A stretch of 33,480 nucleotides of DNA from Armatimonadota bacterium (GCA_016235455.1 JACRKZ010000081.1:1-33480); one strand, 5' to 3'. Numbered from the stretch's first letter, positions 7,827 to 23,400 are shown. The notes: generated by a model not told the origin, from the sequence alone. Made by a program: numbers and translations.

Positions 7827-8642
7827 TCAGCTCGCGGCGCAGGCGGCGATGATCGGCTTGAAGTCGGCCACCTTGAGGCTGGCGCCACCGACCAGGCCGC
7901 CGTCGATGTCGGCCTTGGCCAGCAGACCGACCACGTTGTCGGCCTTCATGCTGCCGCCGTAGAGCACGCGCACGGCGTCGGCCGTGGGCTGGTCGTAGAG
8001 CTTGGCGACGGTGGCGCGGATCATGCCGCAGATGCGCTGGGCCTCGTCGGGGTCGCAGACCTTGCCCGTGCCGATCGACCAGACCGGCTCGTAGGCCAGC
8101 AACATGCCGGCGACCTGCTCGGCCGAGACGTCCTTGAGGCCGGCTTCGAGCTGGGCGGCGATGATCGGGTCGGCCTGACCGGCCTCGCGCTCGGCCAGCG
8201 TCTCGCCGACGCACAGGCAGGGGATCAGGCCACCTTCGAGCGCGACCTTGACCTTGATGTTGCAGGAGGCGTCGGTGTCGCCGAAGACCTTGCCCAGGTC
8301 ACCCGCGAGCTCGGGCTCGGGCACGCCGAAGCGGCCGCGGCGCTCGCTATGGCCGACCAGCACGTGCGTGCAACCGGCGTCCTTGAGCATCGGCACGGAG
8401 ACTTCACCGGTGTAGGCGCCGCTGGCCTTCCAGTACATGTCCTGGCCACCAACGCCGGCCTTGGCGGCTTCCGCGCCACGGGCCACCTTCATCAGCATGG
8501 TGAACGGGGCGAAGATGATCACCTCGGCCTCGCCGGCGATGTCCGCGCGGGCCTCGGCCAGCTCCGCCATGTAGGCCTTGGCCTCGGCGATGGTCTTGTT
8601 CATCTTCCAGTTGGCGGCCGCCACGGCCACGCGCTTGCTCAT
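7827..8642 (-). CDS. tpiA: triosephosphate isomerase
   Basis: Motifs ANWKMNK, GAYTGEVS, GHSERR, AYEPVWSIGTG, VLYGGS and DGGLVGGASL. Start at ATG 8642 (MSKRV) with purine-rich GGCAGGAAA upstream. Confidence 0.97.
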   Translation of the reverse strand: MSKRVAVAAANWKMNKTIAEAKAYMAELAEARADIAGEAEVIIFAPFTMLMKVARGAEAAKAGVGGQDMYWKASGAYTGEVSVPMLKDAGCTHVLVGHSERRGRFGVPEPELAGDLGKVFGDTDASCNIKVKVALEGGLIPCLCVGETLAEREAGQADPIIAAQLEAGLKDVSAEQVAGMLLAYEPVWSIGTGKVCDPDEAQRICGMIRATVAKLYDQPTADAVRVLYGGSMKADNVVGLLAKADIDGGLVGGASLKVADFKPIIAACAAS

Positions 8643-8676
8643 GGGATTTCCTGCCTTCAATCAGTGGATTGGCCCG

Positions 8677-8705
8677 ATTATCGACCTGGGTTGCGTTGGT
8701 GTCAA
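8677..8705 (-). promoter_or_regulatory. sigma70-type promoter for tpiA
   Basis: Minus strand TTGACA (8700-8705), 17-nt spacer, GATAAT (8677-8682). Confidence 0.7.
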
Positions 8706-8760
8706 CGCAGCGCGCGGCGTCAGGTCGTGCGGCGTGGGACGTGGGGTAGCGGCGCTGGTG

Positions 8761-9072
8761 CTAGTCGACCAACACCAGGATGTCGTTCCCTTCGACCCGC
8801 ACTTCATAGCGCGGAATGGGCACCACCGCCGGCATGGTCAATTGCCGGCCGCTGCGAATGTCGAACCGCGCGCCATGCAACGGGCACTCGACCTCGCAGC
8901 CGCACAGCGTGCCATCAGTCAGATGCGCGTGGGCATGGCTGCAGATGTCGCCCGTGGCCAGGATCTCGCCGTCGAGGTTGTACAACGCGACGGCCTCATC
9001 CTCGACCCACACGCCCTTCATGGTGCCCGGGGGCACATCGGAAAGCGTGGCGACGCGTACGAACTCGCTCAT
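8761..9072 (-). CDS. Rieske [2Fe-2S] ferredoxin (suf-associated)
   Basis: C-S-H (ICSHA) and C-P-L-H (ECPLHGARFD) Rieske ligand motifs; start MSEFVR at 9072, directly after sufD. Confidence 0.92.
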   Translation of the reverse strand: MSEFVRVATLSDVPPGTMKGVWVEDEAVALYNLDGEILATGDICSHAHAHLTDGTLCGCEVECPLHGARFDIRSGRQLTMPAVVPIPRYEVRVEGNDILVLVD

Positions 9073-9082
9073 CTGGCACCCC

Positions 9083-10396
9083 CTAGAGCAACCCACCGTG
9101 ACTCGCTGCCAGGTTGTCGATGCGCTGTGCGACCGCGTGTTGCAGTCGGGCGCGCACACTCTCTACCGGCACCTGCTCGATGACCGGCTCGAAGAAGCCG
9201 GCTACCATCATGCGCTGCGCCTCGCCGCGCGGCAGCCCGCGCGACATGAGGTAGAACACAATCTCGTTGTCGAGATGCGACAGCGACGCGCCGTGGCTGC
9301 ACTTGACGTCGTCGGCCAGGATTTCCAGCACGGGCATGCTGTCCGCGCGGGCTTTGTCTCCCAGCAGCAGGTTCTCGTTCTTCTGGTAGGCGTCGGTCTG
9401 CTGCGCCTCGGGATGCACGCTGATCACGCCGCGGAAGACCGAGCGGCCTTTGTCGCCCACGGCGCCCAGGAACCTCAGGTTGCTGTGGCAGTTGGCCACA
9501 CGATGGTCCTGCACCGTGGTCTGGTCGAGGTGCTGGCCAGCGGCGGGGAAGCTGATGCCAAGCAGGTCGACGGAGCTGCCCGAGCCGGCCAGCGCCGCGC
9601 CGATGAACTCCTTGCTGAGCTTGCCGCCCAGGTTGCCGGTGCACAGGCTGACCTGCGCGCCGGGCCCGGCCAGCACGCGCTTGACGCCGACTTCGTAGAC
9701 TTTCGGGCCCCACTCCTGCACGCCGGCATAGACCACCTGGGCGTCACGGCCCGCGATGATCTCGGTGATGGGCACACTCAGGCCGGTGACGTCGGCGGCG
9801 CTGCGGTACTCCTCCACCAGGCTCAACCGGGCGCCGTCGTCGACAATGATCAGGCTGTGGTGGAGCAGGCTGCCGCCACCCAGCTCAACCTGCGCCAAGA
9901 GCGCGCCGTCTACCTGCACGCCACGCGGCACGTAGCAGAACAGGCCCTGGTTAAAGAAGGCGGCATGGAGCAGCGTGAACTTGCCCTCACCGGGCTGCAC
10001 GCAGTGGGTCATGAAGTGCGTGCGGATCAGCTCGCCGTGGCTGGGCAACGCCTGATGCAGGCTGGTCAGCACCACGCCCTGGGCGGCCAACTCGGCGTTG
10101 AGCCGCGAGCCGACGAGGGTGCCGTCGACGAACGTCGCCGTGCCGACCGCATCGTCCGCCGCGGTGACGGCCGAGGCCGTCGCGCCGTTAGGCGTGGCGA
10201 TGTCGGCCAGCGCGTCGAAGTCGATGCGGCGCAGGTCACAGCGCCGCCAATCCTCATCACTGCGCGTGTCGGGATACGGCGTCTGCTCGAAGGCGGTGAA
10301 GGCTTCCAGCCGCTTGGCCAGCAACCAGTCGGGCTCGGCCAGCGCGGCCGAGAGCGCCACGACGCTGTCGCGGGTGAACCCATGGAGACTGCTCAT
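9083..10396 (-). CDS. sufD: Fe-S cluster assembly protein SufD
   Basis: SufBD beta-helix family; EDWRRCDL, QQTDAYQKNENLLL, PVLEILADDVKCSHGA and FYLMSRGL; follows sufB. Confidence 0.93.
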   Translation of the reverse strand: MSSLHGFTRDSVVALSAALAEPDWLLAKRLEAFTAFEQTPYPDTRSDEDWRRCDLRRIDFDALADIATPNGATASAVTAADDAVGTATFVDGTLVGSRLNAELAAQGVVLTSLHQALPSHGELIRTHFMTHCVQPGEGKFTLLHAAFFNQGLFCYVPRGVQVDGALLAQVELGGGSLLHHSLIIVDDGARLSLVEEYRSAADVTGLSVPITEIIAGRDAQVVYAGVQEWGPKVYEVGVKRVLAGPGAQVSLCTGNLGGKLSKEFIGAALAGSGSSVDLLGISFPAAGQHLDQTTVQDHRVANCHSNLRFLGAVGDKGRSVFRGVISVHPEAQQTDAYQKNENLLLGDKARADSMPVLEILADDVKCSHGASLSHLDNEIVFYLMSRGLPRGEAQRMMVAGFFEPVIEQVPVESVRARLQHAVAQRIDNLAASHGGLL

Positions 10397-10399
10397 TGT

Positions 10400-11839
10400 T
10401 CAGCCCACCGATCCTTCCATCTGCAGCTCGATCAGGCGGTTCATCTCCACCGCGTACTCCATCGGCAACTCCTTGACGATGGGTTCGATGAAGCCGTTGA
10501 CGATCATGCCGATGGCGGCGTCTTCGTCCAGGCCACGGCTCATCAGGTAGAAGAGCTGCTCCTCGCCCACGCGGCTGACCGACGCCTCGTGGCCGATGTC
10601 CACCTGCTTCTCCTCGACTTCCATGTATGGGTAGGTGTCGGAGCGAGCCTTGTCGTCGAGCAGCAGCGCATCGCAGACCACATTGGCCTTGACGCCGGTG
10701 CAGCCGGGGTAGACCTTGCACAGGCCGCGGTAGGTGCTGCGGCCGCCGTCCTTGCTGATCGACTTGGAGATGATGCGGCTGGTCGTGTTGGGCGCCGCGT
10801 GGACCATTTTGGAGCCGGCGTCCTGATGCTGGCCCGCGCCGGCGAAGGCAATCGACAGCACCTCGCCATGGGCGCCGGGCTCGAGCATGACCACCGCGGG
10901 GTACTTCATGGTGAGCTTGCTGCCCAGGTTGGCGTCAACCCACTCCATGGTCGCGTCGGCATAGGCCACGGCGCGCTTGGTGACGAGGTTGTAGACGTTG
11001 TTGGACCAGTTCTGGATGGTCGAGTAGCGTACCCGGGCGCCGCGCTTGACGACGATCTCGACCACCGCCGAGTGCAGGCTATCCTTGCTGTAGATGGGCG
11101 CGGTACAGCCCTCGACATAGTGCACGAAGCTGCCCTCGTCGGCGATGATCAGCGTCCGCTCGAACTGGCCGGCGTTGGCCGTGTTGATGCGGAAGTAGGC
11201 CTGCAGCGGGATATCCACGTGCACGCCTGGCGGCACGTAGATGAAGCTGCCGCCCGACCACACCGCGGTGTTGAGCGCGGCGAACTTGTTGTCGGCATAG
11301 GGGATGATCTTGCCGAAGTGCTCCTGGACCAGGTCGGGATGGTTCTGCACCGCCTCCTCGGGCGACAGGAACAGCACCCCTTGCTCCTCCCACTGCGCCT
11401 TAAGCGAGTGGTAGACGACCTCGGAGTCATACTGCGCGCCGACGCCGCCGAGCAGCGCGGAGCGCTCGGCTTCGGGCACGCCGAGCCGATCGAAGGTCCG
11501 CTTGATGTCGTCGGGCACGTCTTCCCAGGCGGTCTCGGCCTGGGCCGAGGCCTTGACGTAGTAGGTGATCTCGTCGAAGTTGATGCCGGTCAGGTCGCCG
11601 CCCCAGTTGGGCATGGGCGTGGCCAGGAAGTGGCGCAGGCCCTCCAGGCGCTTCTCGAGCATCCACGCGGGCTCGTCCTTGATGGCCGAGATCTCGCGCA
11701 CAATGTCCTCGGTCAGGCCGCGCTTGGTCTCAAAGACGTTGACGCGGTCGTCGTGAAAACCGTACTTCTCCGCATAGTCGCCGCGCAGGGCGCGCAGCTC
11801 ATCATGCTGGTCGGTTTCGGCGTTGACAGGTCGTGCCAT
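10400..11839 (-). CDS. sufB: Fe-S cluster assembly protein SufB
   Basis: Motifs [49 protein letters not shown] and [23 protein letters not shown]. Confidence 0.97.
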
Positions 11840-11841
11840 GA

Positions 11842-12591
11842 TCAGGCCTCCTCGGCGACCCAGTCCCAGCTCTTTTCGGCTGTGAGTCGCTCGGCCAGTT
11901 CGATGCCGCCGGTCATTTGGATGCGACCGTCGGTCATGATATGCACGTAGTCGGGCTGCATCTGCTGCACGACGTCCTCGTAGTGGGTGACCACGAGGAA
12001 GCCGGTGCGCTCGTGCTGGGCCAACACGACGTCGGCCACGAGTTGGCGCATCTGGATGTCCAGGCCCGAGTCGGTCTCGTCCAGGATGGCGATGCGCGGT
12101 GCCAGGGTGAGCAGTTGCAGCATCTCGCAGCGCTTGCGCTCGCCGCCGGAGAAGCCGTCGTTGAGGTAGCGCCGGGCGAACTCGGGCTTCATGTCGAGTT
12201 GCTTCATGTTGGCACTCATCGAGCGGGAGAAGTCGCGCAGGCTGATCTTCTCGCCGCGCACCGATTGGGCCGCCTGGCGCAGGAAGTTGCTGACACTGAC
12301 GCCCGGGATCTCCTTGGGATTCTGGAACGCCAGGAACAGACCCAGCTTGGCCCGCTCGTTGGGTTCGAGCGCCAGCAGGTCCTCACCGTCCAGGGTCACC
12401 GAGCCGCTGGTCACGTCGTAGCTGGGGTGACCCATGAGCGCATAGGCCAGGGTCGATTTGCCCGAGCCGTTGGCGCCCATCAGCACGTGGCGCTCGCCTT
12501 GCTTCATGGTCAGGCTGAGCCCCTTGAGGATCGGCTTGTCGCCGATGCTCACGTGCAGGTCATCGATCACCAGAGTTGCCATATCCGCCAT
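11842..12591 (-). CDS. sufC: Fe-S cluster assembly ATPase SufC
   Basis: Walker [32 protein letters not shown] and [10 protein letters not shown]. Confidence 0.95.
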
Positions 12592-12613
12592 CGTTGTCTT
12601 TCCGTTCCCAGGG

Positions 12614-12925
12614 CTACACGGGTACGCCCATCATCGCCAACAACTGCTTACCTTCCTCGGTGGCCATCGAGGGCATCCAGGGCGGCGACCAGACGAGGTT
12701 CACCGTGGACTCCTCAATGCTCTCCAGCGACAGGACGGCATTGCGTACCTGCGCCACGAGTTCGCCCGCCAAGGGACAGCCGACGCTGGTCAGGGTCAGG
12801 TCGACCACCACCGCCGGGCCATCGATGGACACGCCGTAGACCAGACCCAGGTCCACGATGTTGACCGGGATCTCAGGGTCATAGCAGGTCTGCAGCACTT
12901 CATAAACCGCTTGTTCAGTCACCAT
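12614..12925 (-). CDS. sufT: DUF59/SufT-type Fe-S cluster assembly factor
   Basis: DPEIPVNIVDLGLVY...LTLTSVGCP...VWSPPW is the DUF59 signature; start MVTEQ at 12925. Confidence 0.88.
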   Translation of the reverse strand: MVTEQAVYEVLQTCYDPEIPVNIVDLGLVYGVSIDGPAVVVDLTLTSVGCPLAGELVAQVRNAVLSLESIEESTVNLVWSPPWMPSMATEEGKQLLAMMGVPV

Positions 12926-12935
12926 GGCTACCACG

Positions 12936-13520
12936 CTACTCCGCGCCAACCGTGGGCAGGCAAAGGTCCGCGTCGAACCCCGCGCAATGCACGGCACACA
13001 GGTCGTTATGATCCACGCCGCAGCGCAGACAGGCGATGTCGCCTTCTCTCTGGCTGACCAGAGCCGACAGCAGGAACTGCCTCAGCCCGTGCGTCAACGC
13101 GGCTCGGTCCGGCTCGCCCATGCGCTCCAGCACGCCCGCCACGCGCCGGTCGATCTCGGCCCGCACCACGCGCACCAGATCGTGACCGGCCGCCGTGCTC
13201 GTCAGCCGCACCGTGCGCCGGTCACTGCCGCGACCACGCTGCACCAACGGCACCCGCCGCTCTTCGCTCAGGCCCCGAACCGCCTTGGTCACCGCCGCGC
13301 TCGACATGCGCAAGCCGTCGGCGACCTCCTTGACGGTCGGCAATTCATGACGGTCAATGTACCGCAAAACCTCAAACTGTGAGCAGGTTATCGATTCCCG
13401 GCCGCCGTCAGCCACCGGAATCACCGCCGCCGCATACACTTCCTCGGCCACGCCGAGCGAGACCAGCCGGACCAACTGGCTCAGCATTTTGGCCGTCTCG
13501 ACGTTGCTCGTTGTCTCCAT
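12936..13520 (-). CDS. MarR-family winged-helix regulator with C-terminal Cys/His cluster; first gene of the suf operon
   Basis: MarR-like core (ITCSQFEVLRYI...TVKEVADGLRMSSAAVTKAVRGL...LVQR...DRRTVRLTSTAAG) and tail CLRCGVDHNDLCAVHCAGFDADLC. GGAG RBS before ATG 13520. Confidence 0.85.
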   Translation of the reverse strand: METTSNVETAKMLSQLVRLVSLGVAEEVYAAAVIPVADGGRESITCSQFEVLRYIDRHELPTVKEVADGLRMSSAAVTKAVRGLSEERRVPLVQRGRGSDRRTVRLTSTAAGHDLVRVVRAEIDRRVAGVLERMGEPDRAALTHGLRQFLLSALVSQREGDIACLRCGVDHNDLCAVHCAGFDADLCLPTVGAE

Positions 13521-13558
13521 GGCGTCTCCCACCCAGACTCTCGACTCGCTGAATTGCA

Positions 13559-13598
13559 TAACCAAGTTAAGTATCTGTCTGGCGCGCAGACCTGTCAA
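13559..13598 (-). promoter_or_regulatory. suf operon promoter with an adjacent operator-like palindrome
   Basis: Minus strand TTGACA (13593-13598), 17-nt spacer, GATACT (13570-13575), immediately followed by TAAC-TTG-GTTA (13559-13569) in an AT-rich patch. Confidence 0.65.
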
Positions 13599-13757
13599 CA
13601 AGAGCGTGGGCAGCGGGTGCGGGTCACGGCCTGCCGCCGCGACCCGCGGCGTAGGACGCCGGGCGTGCGGCGCGCCCATTGGGCGACCCGGCACAGCGGC
13701 GTACGTACGGCAAGGCGTGCCGTGGCGGCTGATCGAGGGAGGCGAGGGGCGAAGGCT

Positions 13758-13791
13758 GGATCGGCGCGGTGCGAGCGCACCGCGCCGATCC
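13758..13791. terminator. perfect GC-rich inverted repeat; probable terminator of the oxidoreductase/isomerase pair
   Basis: GGATCGGCGCGGTGCG-AG-CGCACCGCGCCGATCC, about 10 nt downstream of the stop at 13801; no U-tract. Confidence 0.6.
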
Positions 13792-13800
13792 TCGCTGTGG

Positions 13801-14598
13801 CTAGGCCAGGAACTGGCTGATGTAGCGCGCCGAGAGGGTGACGCACTTGTACTTGAGCTCGCCGCGGCTCCACTTCGCGCCGTGCGGCTCGATGGTCAGA
13901 TAGCCATCGTAGCCGTGCTCATGCAGGAAGCAGAAGACCTTGCCCCACTCGATGCAGCCCATGCCGGCCGCGGGCTGGGCGGCCAGCTTGCCGCCCAGGT
14001 AGAGGTGCTCCTTGATGTGCATGTGCGTGACCTTGTCCCCATGCTGCCACAGGAAGCCCAGGTAGTCCCAGCCGTCGTGGCACAGGTTGGCCGGGTCGCA
14101 CTTGATGCCCACCTCGGGGAACTGCCGCCACAGGCTGACGTAGCTGGCCGGCGTTTCGGTGAACGTGTTGCCGTGCACCGCATAGATGGCCAGCTTCATG
14201 CCCGCTGTCTTGATGCGGTCCAGGTACGGCGGGAAGACCTCGGCGAAGGCGGCGACGTTCTGCTCGGTGCTGTTCTGGGGTTGGTTGCCCGCGCTGGTGA
14301 TGACCACGCCGGCGCCCAGCATCTCTCCGAACGTCACTAGCCGGTCAAGTTGCTCCAGGGCCGCGGCGCGCTCCGCGGCGTCCAGGGCGGTGTGGTTCCA
14401 GCCCCACAGCCCGAGCGTGGAGCACTCCACGCCGTACTTGTCGAGGATAGCGCGCATCTGCTTGACATAGTCAGGCGTCAGATCCTTGAACGAACCCCAG
14501 TGGTTGAACTCCAGGCCGGCCAGTCCGTGCTCGGCGCAGAACCGCGCGTCGGCTTCGATGGTCGGCAGGTCGTTGTCCGCAATGAAACCGATCTTCAT
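13801..14598 (-). CDS. sugar phosphate isomerase/epimerase (xylose isomerase-like TIM barrel, IolE/AP-endonuclease-2 family)
   Basis: Motifs GLEF, GIKCDPANL, HMHIKE, GMGCIEW and GYDGYLTIEPH; 2 nt from the Gfo/Idh/MocA gene. Confidence 0.85.
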   Translation of the reverse strand: MKIGFIADNDLPTIEADARFCAEHGLAGLEFNHWGSFKDLTPDYVKQMRAILDKYGVECSTLGLWGWNHTALDAAERAAALEQLDRLVTFGEMLGAGVVITSAGNQPQNSTEQNVAAFAEVFPPYLDRIKTAGMKLAIYAVHGNTFTETPASYVSLWRQFPEVGIKCDPANLCHDGWDYLGFLWQHGDKVTHMHIKEHLYLGGKLAAQPAAGMGCIEWGKVFCFLHEHGYDGYLTIEPHGAKWSRGELKYKCVTLSARYISQFLA

Positions 14599-20451: not shown

Positions 20452-23400
20452 GTGAGTGAAGTCGGACGGATCATCATCACAGGCGCGCGTGAGCACAACT
20501 TGCGGTCGGTGGACCTCGAGTTGCCGCGGGACCGGCTGATTGTCTTCACGGGGGTGTCGGGCTCGGGCAAGTCGTCCTTGGCGTTCGACACCATCTACGC
20601 CGAAGGTCAGCGGCGCTACATCGAGAGTCTGAGTGCGGGCGCCAGGCAGCACATGGGGCAGCTCAAGCGGCCCGACGTGGACCGCATCGAAGGCCTCTCG
20701 CCGGCCATCGCCATCGGCCAGAAGACCAGCGACAGCAACCCGCGCAGTACCGTGGCTACGGTCAGCGAGATCTACGACTATCTGCGCGTGCTCTATGCCC
20801 GGCTGGGCGGCATCGTGTGTTGCGGGCAACCGGTCGGTCGCCAGACCACCGAGGAAATGACTGAGCGCCTGCTGGCCCTGCCGCCGCGCTCGCGCGTGCA
20901 GTTGCTGGCGCCCGTGGCCCGCCTGCGCAAGGGCGAGTTCCAGGACGTGTTCGACGACGCGCGTCGCGCGGGGTTCGTGCGCGTCCGCGTGGACGGCGAG
21001 GTGCTCGACCTGAGCGAACGCATCGAGCTGGACCGCCAGCGTCGGCACGACATCGAGATTGTGGTCGACCGTCTGGTCATCAAGCCCGAGATCCGCACGC
21101 GCCTGGCCGACAGCCTCGACCTGGGCTTGCGCCATGGTGAAGGCACCGTCATCGCCAACATCATCGGACCGGACGATGATGAGTCCGGCTCGCGCGACCT
21201 GTTCTTCAGCCGCGACTTCTCCTGCCCGCGCTGCGGCACCAGCTACCAGGAGCCGTCGCCGCAATTGTTCAGCTTCAACTCGCCCCAGGGCATGTGCCCC
21301 AGTTGCCAGGGGCTAGGTGCCAAGGCGGCGCTGGACGTGACGCTGGCCGTGCCCGACGACAGCCTGAGCCTGGCCGATGGCGCCGTGGCGCCGTGGGGCG
21401 TGCCCTCGACGCTGCGGCTCCGCCATCAGCTCGACGGGCTGGCCAAACACTACGACTTCAGCCTCAAAACCCCCTGGCGTGACCTGTCCGAGGACGTGCG
21501 CCAAGTGGTGCTGCACGGCAGCGACCAGTCCATCCACTTCGTCTATCGCTCGCACAGCGGCAAACGCTATCCGTACGAGGGTACGTGGGGTGGCGTGCTG
21601 GGCACGCTGGGCAACACCGAGGACGCGTTCGACGAGGAGGAGACCCGCGGTCGCGCCGGCAGTTGGCTGACCACGGTGCCATGCGAGGAGTGCGCCGGCG
21701 AGCGGCTGTGCTCCGAGGCCCGCCGGGTGGAGGTCGAGGGCGTCAATATCAGCGAGCTCTGCGCGCGGACCATCTCGGGCGCGGCCGAGTTCTTCGACGA
21801 CCTGCGCCTGCTGGGCCAACGCGCGCTCATCGGCGAGGACCTGGTGCGCGAGATCCGCGGCCGGCTCAACTTCCTGCTCAACGTCGGCCTGCATTACCTG
21901 TCGTTGGACCGGCCCGCGCCGACTCTGTCCGGCGGCGAAGCCCAGCGCATCCGGCTGGCCAGCCAGATCGGCGCCGGCCTGGTGGGCGTGACGTACGTGC
22001 TGGACGAGCCGAGCATCGGCCTGCACCACCGCGACAACCGCCACCTGCTCAGCACGCTGCAGCGGCTGCGCGACCTGGGCAACACGGTCATCGTCGTTGA
22101 GCACGACGAGGAGACCATGCTGGCCGCCGACTACCTGGTCGACGTCGGGCCGGGCCCCGGCCGGCTGGGTGGGGAAGTGGTGGCCGCGGGCAGCCCAGAG
22201 GTGGTCTGCGCCAACCTCCACAGCCTGACTGCCGACTACCTCACGGGCCGCCGCGCCATCGCCAAACCGGAATCGCGGCGCGCCGTCGATCCCGAGCGGC
22301 AACTGGTCATCCGCGGCGCCCAGCAGAACAACCTGCTGGACATCGATGTCGCCTTCCCGCTGGGAGTGTTCGTCTGCGTCACCGGCGTCTCGGGCTCGGG
22401 CAAGTCATCGCTGGTCAACGACATTCTGCACGACGCGCTGGCCCGTGACCTCAACGGCGCCCAATGCCATCCGGGCCGTCATCGGTCGATCGAGGGCATC
22501 GAGCACCTGGACAAGGTCATCGCCATCGACCAAAGCCCCATCGGCCGCACGCCGCGCAGCAATCCGGCCACCTACACCAAAGTGCTCGACCCGATCCGGC
22601 AACTGTACGCCAAGCTGCCCGACGCGAAGATCCGCGGCTACGGCCCCGGCCGTTTCAGCTTCAACGTGCCCGGCGGGCGCTGCGAGGCCTGCGAGGGTCG
22701 CGGCTACCTGCGCATCGAGATGGACTTCCTCGACGATGTGTGGGTGGAGTGCGAGGTCTGCGGCGGCACGCGGTTCAACCTGGAGACGCTGCAGGTCAAG
22801 TTCAAGGGCAAGTCCATCGCCGACCTGCTGGGCATGGCCGTGGCCGAGGCGCTGGAGCTATTCTCCGACGTGCCCGCGGTGGCCAAGATCCTGCGTACCT
22901 TGTGCGATGTGGGCCTCGACTACATCCATCTGGGCCAGCCCGCGCCGACGCTGTCTGGCGGTGAGGCGCAGCGCATCAAGCTCGCGCGCGAACTGGCGCG
23001 GCGTTCCACGGGCAAGACGCTCTATCTGCTGGACGAACCCACCACCGGCCTGCATTTCGAGGACATCCGCAAGCTGCTGGGTGTGTTGCAGCGGTTCGTC
23101 GACGAGGGCAACACGGTCGTCGTCATCGAGCACAATCTCGATGTCATCAAGACTGCTGACTACCTGATCGACATGGGTCCCGAAGGCGGCGGCGGCGGCG
23201 GGCTGCTCATCGCGGCCGGCACGCCGGAGGCGGTGGCCGAGGTCGATGCCAGCCACACCGGCCACAGCCTGCGCGAGGTGTTGGGGCTGGAAGTGCGCCA
23301 CGCCATGCGCGCCACGCCAGGCGTGGAGGATGCGGAGCACCGCATCTCGCCCTGGGCGCCGCTCGACTCCGTGGTGGTCAAGGGCGCGCGCGCCCACAAC

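Follow-up and report, generated by a model that had tools for sequence, protein, structure and literature searches.

A candidate self-repressing MarR-fold regulator with a Cys3His tail at the head of a suf operon in Armatimonadota

A stretch of 33,480 nucleotides from an Armatimonadota bacterium (GCA_016235455.1, JACRKZ010000081.1:1-33480; the window, analysed at its full length) carries on its minus strand a suf operon for iron-sulfur (Fe-S) cluster assembly, whose first gene encodes a winged-helix regulator with a cysteine-rich C-terminal tail. A first-pass annotation had proposed that this regulator is an autoregulatory repressor, built differently from SufR and IscR, which senses cluster sufficiency through its tail. 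Following comparison with homologues, structure prediction and operator scans, the protein is read here as a self-repressing sensor on a MarR scaffold that would hold an Fe-S cluster in a Cys3His tail, analogous to IscR and SufR. A probability of about one half is given to this reading, in which the cofactor and the direction of the switch are what we infer. Computation supports the assignment to the family, the operator, the association with Fe-S assembly genes and the four-ligand logic.

The locus and its predicted operator

The genes and sites at the locus are as follows.

12936..13520, minus: regulator gene (194 aa and stop codon) for a MarR-fold protein with a metal-knuckle tail at its C-terminus (open reading frame, profiles, homologue alignment, model)
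13185..13391, minus: winged helix-turn-helix, residues ~44-112, including the invariant wing motif D100-R101-R102 (Pfam MarR, MarR_2 and HTH_27 stretches, alignment columns, model secondary structure)
13526..13530, minus: Shine-Dalgarno sequence GGGAG, 5 nt before ATG 13520 (read from sequence)
13593..13598, minus: -35 box TTGACA, 17-nt spacer to the -10 box, 10/12 promoter matches
13570..13575, minus: -10 box GATACT (promoter scan)
13558..13570, unstranded: predicted operator palindrome TTAACTTGGTTAT, 9/10 to TTAAC-N3-GTTAA, covering the last -10 base and the expected transcription start
12614..12925, minus: sufT-like gene (DUF59 / FeS_assembly_P; PF01883, E 5e-19), 10 nt after the regulator stop
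11842..12591, minus: sufC, ABC ATPase (profile match, synteny)
10400..11839, minus: sufB (profile match, SUFBD_core E 3e-88)
9083..10396, minus: sufD (profile match, SUFBD_core E 6e-73)
8761..9081, minus: Rieske [2Fe-2S] ferredoxin gene, last of the operon (profile match)

As annotated before, the regulator heads the suf operon. Behind it come the sufT-like gene, sufC, sufB, sufD and the Rieske ferredoxin gene. Its reading frame ends at TAG 12938-12936 and the sufT-like gene begins at ATG 12925, confirming the 10-nt gap between them. The sufT-like protein scored 98 bits against TIGR02945, under the model cut-off. The operon probably ends at the Rieske gene, because a fresh promoter-like site at 8705-8677 (11/12 matches) precedes tpiA (7827-8660). 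Beyond tpiA lie nuoJ, nuoK, nuoL and genes for two further antiporter-like subunits (7605-1862).

ATG 13520 on the window's minus strand is the supported start of the regulator. The reading frame has an alternative upstream limit at GTG 13694, and such an extension would overlap the promoter. ATG 13520 is favoured because the six closest homologues begin at or near METTSNVETAK, because GGGAG is found 5 nt upstream and because the hidden Markov model (HMM) alignment begins there. The regulator is covered by contigs of two metatranscriptome libraries that share ~90-94% identity with the window; of these contigs, one crosses the regulator/sufT junction (12888-13319) and another ends at 13544. Such contigs can show neither a start nor a single transcript and the libraries may contain DNA, so that no conclusion on expression was drawn.

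The upper limit of the span first annotated, 13598, is the first base of the -35 box. Two promoter sites of such score were found in 8500-14000, against 0.5 expected. Seven suf-linked promoters were aligned; they consist of TTGACA, a 17-nt spacer, a -10-like hexamer and then directly TTAAC-N3-GTTA[ACT]. TTGACA stands at the aligned place in 6/7 orthologous promoters; aligned with the -10 box, the orthologues read CATAGT, AATACT, TATAGT or TAATAT, and the palindrome is kept in 7/7 suf-linked orthologues. In genome G053 (contig C10 31327-31353; L006/L165), two perfect copies, 14 bp apart, precede a regulator-sufCB operon. This conserved, palindromic predicted operator at the regulator's own promoter argues for the autoregulatory repressor of the first-pass annotation. 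Repression would proceed by occlusion, because the site abuts the -10 box and covers the start point. An inverted repeat in the promoter spacer, GTCTG-CGCGC-CAGAC (13577-13591), had first been taken as the operator and was rejected, being missing from six orthologous promoters.

Fold and tail of the regulator

The assignment to the MarR-like winged helix-turn-helix proteins holds at the level of the family, the window protein alone lying just under the Pfam cut-offs (MarR_2, 26.1 against 27 bits; MarR, 23.0 against 24.6). A search of 1.84 billion representatives yielded 259 relatives at E<=0.001. Pfam MarR (PF01047) and MarR_2 (PF12802) were both matched at E<=0.01 by 100/100 aligned members, and a profile of 100 relatives matched solved MarR proteins at E 9e-25. 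As this match covers positions up to ~150 of 183, the tail is without a solved counterpart. The AlphaFold model of the regulator (predicted local distance difference test, pLDDT, 90.7; ~90 through residue 180) has the MarR fold, in which the N- and C-terminal helices build the dimerisation domain, alongside a winged helix-turn-helix. Its top Foldseek matches were YusO, MepR, MexR, Rv0880 and ST1710, with template modelling (TM) scores up to 0.82 on the target. Only generic MarR clusters were retrieved from the ESM Atlas.

Over three runs, a two-copy model had a median ipSAE (interaction prediction score from aligned errors) of 0.61, and the best of 3 controls stood at 0.00; this pass may reflect likeness to solved MarR dimers. 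The mark of 0.61 was reached by 20/30 calibration proteins solved as pairs and by 1/23 solved as single chains. The dimer runs share at least 73% of contacts, with a partner pLDDT of at least 74. The modelled interface comprises the usual helix 1 / helix 5-6 contacts and tail residues 159, 162-165 and 174-177. The palindrome that such a dimer would bind is known by sequence comparison only.

The window protein gave no match to the SufR model TIGR02702 at E<=0.1 or to the Rrf2 model PF02082, and no NCBIfam model, SufR included, was meaningfully matched by it. TIGR02702 was weakly matched by 3/100 family members (best E 3e-4) and PF02082 by 5/100 (best E 5e-4). The score against the AdcR-family model NF038251 was 18.3 bits, far from its cut-off of 175. 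No Pfam or NCBIfam model was found for the tail or the subfamily. In the source genome (93% complete), TIGR02702 had no match, four Rrf2 genes were found elsewhere, with no Fe-S assembly gene among the genes called within ~1.5 kb of them, and a second family member with the tail was not found. The locus thus holds no rival regulator, and the regulator is neither SufR nor IscR/Rrf2, as had been claimed.

Two features make up the tail.

12996..13031, minus: conserved core C164-x2-C167-G-x2-H171-x3-C175, proposed Cys3His ligand set (invariant Cys, His/Cys trade-off, modelled interface)
12960..12986, minus: extra lineage-specific Cys, C179 (12984-12986) and C187 (12960-12962), with H178 just before C179 (homologue alignment)

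Translation gave exactly the spacing and coordinates first annotated for a tail of five Cys and two His, namely C164-L-R-C167-G-V-D-H171-N-D-L-C175-A-V-H178-C179-A-G-F-D-A-D-L-C187 (Cx2Cx7Cx3Cx7C plus two His), encoded at 13031-12960. The last 31 residues hold five of the six Cys of the regulator. In the 100-sequence alignment the only invariant columns are D100, R102, C164, C167 and C175, with G168 at least 90% conserved; the three tail Cys are unchanged across ~25% identity. Among 156 related proteins in hand, exact Cx2Cx7C was present in 131, looser spacing in 4 and neither in 21. The tail consensus reads C-L-[RH]-C-G-x-[ED]-H-x-x-[D]-C.

A His occupies the fourth position after the second Cys in 89 of the 131 motif-bearing proteins. 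A further Cys, no more than 8 residues ahead of the motif or 25 behind it, was found in 23/89 members with this His and in 38/42 without it (Fisher p 1e-12, overstated since the sequences are related). In the His-less members the extra Cys follows the third Cys at a distance of 9-11 residues in 27, and takes the His position itself in 4 (P0048, P0050, P0085, P0154). Because a missing His almost always goes with a fourth Cys, the pattern points to a four-ligand metal centre, Cys3His in the window protein and Cys4 elsewhere.

C179 is limited to three proteins, the window regulator P0001 together with P0002 and P0003; C187 occurs in these three and, at the equivalent place, in P0008 (same-genus genome G001). 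The remaining orthologues of the taxonomic family carry a Cys four residues before C164 instead. Since C179 and C187 are confined to the closest relatives, the five-Cys tail is a lineage-specific elaboration of a Cys3His core. Of the five-Cys sensor unit first proposed, C164, C167 and C175 are retained and are joined by H171. At window position 12986 the ~90-94% identical metatranscriptome contigs have T for A, giving AGC and changing Cys179 to Ser; neighbouring differences are synonymous or L174M.

The same repressor and operator could instead work with zinc, the Cys3His set forming a zinc knuckle that is either structural or a thiol-zinc switch, in which oxidants would release Zn, form disulfides and cause derepression, so that the signal would be oxidative stress. 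CCHC zinc knuckles are spaced Cx2Cx4Hx4C; the tail, Cx2Cx3Hx3C with its four ligands within 12 residues, has the same ligand order with each arm one residue shorter. The ribosomal zinc-ribbon protein eS27 was the only solved protein matched by the tail (P0001 residues 161-192); with E 0.03-0.08 the match is not significant and gives no more than a hint of a zinc ribbon. Oxidative-stress genes lie downstream of some members (rubrerythrin/desulfoferrodoxin at 4 loci, clpC at 2), and in G001 an operator-like site is placed ~45 nt before an Fe/Mn superoxide dismutase gene (contig C63 6217-6229, L169, GTAACCAGGTTAA). In the excerpted text of PMC11672702, the only characterised metal-sensing MarR proteins bind Zn. 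Zinc sites of the AdcR/ZitR type are built otherwise, however, the NF038251 score is low, the dominant linkage in Armatimonadota is to Fe-S assembly genes, and known feedback regulators of such genes use Fe-S clusters. A zinc centre is the main rival of the Fe-S reading and is regarded as rather unlikely. The superoxide dismutase gene of the source genome (contig C6) has no operator site upstream.

The family and its genomic context

The phylum survey covered 61 genomes, the source genome (G000) and 60 relatives, of which 28 gave a match at E<=0.001. The motif was present in all 20 best loci of this survey. For a wider scan, 185,579 species genomes were searched with a DNA pattern encoding C-L-[RHQ]-C-G-x-[ED]-H-x3-C, and at least 119 stretches matched. 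Eighty of these were examined with their flanks, giving 30 family members at E<1e-25 and 50 chance matches; 12 more family members lay on stretches too short for context reading. Members obtained by the scan belong to Bacillota (Thermincola, Limnochordia, Peptococcaceae, Clostridia), Armatimonadota and Chloroflexota. The 20 phylum loci and 30 scan loci were combined into a set of 50, and each locus was classed by its first same-strand genes downstream.

L001-L007 (7/50 loci): sufT/sufC/sufB
L008-L011, L014, L016-L018, L073, L087 (10/50): cysteine desulfurase, NifS or IscS (three were tested and exceeded the NCBIfam cut-offs)
L013, L015, L020 (3/50): NifU_N scaffold
L021, L052, L098, L100 (4/50): rubrerythrin and/or desulfoferrodoxin
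L023, L038, L040, L043, L061, L077, L086, L042 (8/50): RACo-like 2Fe-2S protein with NuoE-like and NuoF-like subunits, L042 (same species as L038) being assigned by gene sizes alone
L034, L049 (2/50): ClpC
16/50 loci: other or unidentified

Fe-S assembly genes (suf, nifS/iscS, nifU) were thus directly downstream in 20/50 loci and iron or Fe-S redox proteins in 12 more. Within Armatimonadota the linkage to Fe-S assembly genes was seen in 20/26 loci. The sufT/sufC/sufB loci comprise all four same-family relatives with a match (4/4) and representatives of two other taxonomic families. A maximum-likelihood tree gathers loci of the same context class into coherent clades, on an unresolved backbone. 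The 20 loci ahead of Fe-S assembly genes are distributed over at least seven separate groupings, which are not seven independent events, since kin share labels. Five of them are clades with a Shimodaira-Hasegawa approximate likelihood ratio test (SH-aLRT) value of at least 95 (two suf, nifU, iscS with L016-L018, and nifS with L008-L011 and L014); the remaining two are the single rows L073 and L087.

For counting of operators, the 230 nt upstream of each family gene in the 50 loci were compared with 1388 other 230-nt windows of those loci. Sites of at least 9/10 were present in 23/50 family upstream windows against 15/1388 control windows, and perfect sites in 14/50 against 1/1388. The palindrome recurs ahead of family members in several phyla. 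Symmetric variants were seen in loci that lack a site of at least 9/10, namely GTAAC-N3-GTTAC (L016-L018, L073) and TTAAG-N3-CTTAA (L013, L020, L091).

L023, L038, L040, L043, L061, L077 and L086, from Thermincola and other Bacillota, form a tight clade whose downstream operons encode a RACo-like 2Fe-2S ASKHA protein together with NuoE-like/NuoF-like subunits. Each has a perfect TTAAC-N3-GTTAA site, TTAACTAGGTTAA in six and TTAACTTGGTTAA in L040, and a divergent gene for a major facilitator superfamily (MFS) transporter is frequent beside this clade. The members L012, L027, L033, L039 and L026, L075, L084 fall into two clades with good support, both in the tree's second half, and show neither a recognisable Fe-S assembly neighbour nor the TTAAC palindrome. 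In place of the palindrome, TTAGCA-N2-GGTAA or TTACTCAAGGTAA is present in the first four, and the other three have no site above 7/10. These clades may represent one or more paralogous subfamilies of other specificity.

Among the neighbours, rubrerythrin, desulfoferrodoxin and similar iron proteins, together with member L073, which is divergent from feoB, would suit a mononuclear, rubredoxin-like Fe(II) site in the tail, making the protein an iron-dependent repressor that keeps suf off when iron is plentiful. Cys4 and Cys3His sites are able to hold mononuclear iron, and Fur holds the suf operon of Escherichia coli off when iron is plentiful. Against this, no iron-uptake genes (siderophore, ABC, Feo) were found directly downstream in the 50 loci, the neighbours being cluster-assembly and Fe-S proteins rather than iron-acquisition genes, and such a sensor appears improbable.

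The 16 loci without an evident Fe-S link would also fit an ordinary MarR repressor whose signal is a small organic ligand or the oxidation of a single Cys, with a tail that only stabilises the fold and a position before suf that carries no sensing logic. MarR proteins are very diverse, and the window protein lies under the Pfam cut-offs and has no diagnostic family model. It would then be hard to account for three Cys that stay invariant across such divergent sequences, for a His/Cys trade-off that argues for a ligand set, for an operator kept across phyla and for several clades placed before suf, nifS/iscS or nifU. An ordinary MarR repressor is accordingly held to be a poor candidate.

In the source genome (6.5 Mb, 69% G+C), only two sites of at least 9/10 were found, both directly after a -10-like hexamer. 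The second, GTAACCAGGTTAA, lies on contig C60 33117-33129 (L175 ~1618-1630), after TATAAT and ~110 nt before the gene for a 311-aa RpoD-family sigma factor (C60 33226-34161). Orthologous sigma genes of G002 (L167) and G004 (L163) have the same palindrome ~135-145 nt upstream. In G053 a further perfect site (contig C4 8769-8781, L160) separates a divergent gene for a SufS-like cysteine desulfurase from nadA, the gene for quinolinate synthase, a [4Fe-4S] enzyme; a fourth perfect site in this genome (L173) has no clear target.

The source genome carries sufS (above the NCBIfam cut-off) and sufU next to each other on another contig (C32 ~21482-23172, L149), away from sufTCBD. This sufS-sufU locus has no adjacent regulator and no operator, the best upstream match being 6/10. 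A second, NifS-like desulfurase gene lies on contig C66 behind a tetratricopeptide repeat (TPR)/cyclase gene; it has no operator, and an 8/10 match nearby sits at the gene's 3' end.

Proposed mechanism and comparison with known systems

In the mechanism favoured here, a dimeric MarR-fold repressor would be cotranscribed with sufT, sufC, sufB, sufD and the Rieske gene from one sigma-70-type promoter. The dimer is predicted to bind the 13-bp palindrome at 13558-13570 and to shut off its own operon. C164-x2-C167-x3-H171-x3-C175, spanning 12 residues, would provide four ligands, placed at the subunit interface in the dimer model, and these may hold an Fe-S cluster, by analogy with the Cys3His set of IscR's [2Fe-2S]. 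When clusters are sufficient, the holo-protein would bind DNA and repress suf; when they are scarce or oxidised, the apo-protein would release DNA and suf would be induced. An Fe-S cluster is suggested because of the analogy with IscR, SufR and ArnR and because of the content of the regulon. Of the first-pass claim that the tail binds an Fe-S cluster or metal, the four-ligand metal centre finds support in the His/Cys trade-off; for the choice among Fe-S, Zn and Fe, and for cofactor-dependent DNA binding, we infer rather than observe.

Several points weigh against this reading. Four Cys3His ligands packed into 12 residues would suit a zinc knuckle as well, the sole and non-significant tail match among solved chains is to a zinc ribbon, and the Fe-S cluster is proposed by analogy. 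The suf position, on which the first-pass annotation had relied, is kept in all same-family relatives and in two other families, but the family is not suf-specific: 30/50 loci are not directly ahead of Fe-S assembly genes, 16 of them having unrelated or unidentified neighbours, and 27/50 have no site of at least 9/10. These counts come from a set in which the 30 scan loci over-represent the His subtype, the search pattern demanding His at +4, and in which loci from related genomes are not independent. Base composition alone would give 11.8 sites of at least 9/10 in the source genome, above the 2 observed, so that the argument rests on the placement of sites and not on their number. Since sufS-sufU lies on a separate contig without an operator, the regulator would not control the whole pathway.

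The regulator belongs to a widespread and apparently undescribed family, found ahead of Fe-S assembly genes and probably sensing cluster or redox state. We tentatively consider it quite possible that this family forms a third, independently evolved class of Fe-S-status regulators beside IscR and SufR: a MarR dimer with an interface Cys3His/Cys4 cluster and a TTAAC-N3-GTTAA operator, which would be the first MarR-family sensor with an Fe-S cluster. In Armatimonadota such a class would have been taken up successively by suf, nifS/iscS and nifU operons; it would further control an RpoD-family sigma factor in the window lineage and operons for rubrerythrin, desulfoferrodoxin and Fe-S flavoprotein in anaerobic Bacillota, making up a phylum-spanning Fe-S/oxidative-stress regulon.

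IscR and SufR are the regulators through which feedback on Fe-S assembly is understood, and in many phyla neither stands ahead of the assembly genes. If the reading is true, the family fills this gap for Armatimonadota and reaches into Bacillota and Chloroflexota. The system lends itself to direct testing, since its operator and four-residue ligand set are defined and its regulon is predicted. Were the cofactor an Fe-S cluster, evolution would have converged on IscR's Cys3His solution and the MarR superfamily would gain a new sensing chemistry, only Zn being named in section 3.2.11 of a 2024 review (PMC11672702). Were it zinc, a new thiol-zinc redox switch over Fe-S assembly would still result. 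No description of a MarR-type Fe-S regulator of suf/nif/isc, or of a TTAAC-N3-GTTAA operator, was found in the full-text literature, subscription journals being outside its coverage.

The regulon of IscR extends to other Fe-S proteins. Like the window regulator, IscR heads an Fe-S assembly operon; it represses itself, as predicted for the window regulator, and its Cys3His ligand composition equals that of the proposed set C164, C167, H171 and C175. It differs in having an Rrf2 scaffold, where the window regulator is a MarR protein, a ligand spacing of x5, x5, x2 and another operator. Its [2Fe-2S] cluster is ligated by C92, C98, C104 and H107, which span 16 residues (PMC3899308, excerpted text).

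SufR, of cyanobacteria and as Rv1460 of Mycobacterium tuberculosis, is described in the excerpted text of PMC6034842 as a self-regulating winged-helix repressor in which an Fe-S cluster on C-terminal Cys sets the affinity for DNA. The SufR gene heads the suf operon or lies beside it, and the window regulator shares this position and the winged helix. SufR differs in its own C-terminal domain of ~100 residues, with Cys203, Cys216 and Cys244 in Rv1460 (x12, x27) according to the same text, whereas the window protein combines a MarR fold with a 12-residue Cx2Cx3Hx3C motif, its Cx2Cx7C lying within these 12 residues and not spread over a domain.

Both SufR and ArnR use three Cys for [4Fe-4S] (excerpted texts of PMC6034842 and PMC12343034). 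ArnR of Corynebacterium is a MarR/ArsR-like winged-helix protein whose three Cys are conserved; in the excerpted text of PMC12343034 it is distinguished by a large C-terminal sensory domain (Cys179, 193, 223), controls nitrate respiration and hmp rather than Fe-S assembly, and is almost confined to Actinobacteria. The Zn-sensing AdcR/ZitR proteins, given in section 3.2.11 of PMC11672702 as the only characterised metalloregulatory MarR proteins, share the MarR fold and have their DNA binding controlled by a bound metal, as is proposed for the window regulator. They differ in their His/Glu/Cys Zn sites, which lie between the dimerisation and DNA-binding domains, lack a C-terminal Cys tail and regulate zinc uptake. 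The regulatory logic is that known from IscR and SufR, while the scaffold, the ligand motif and the operator are new.

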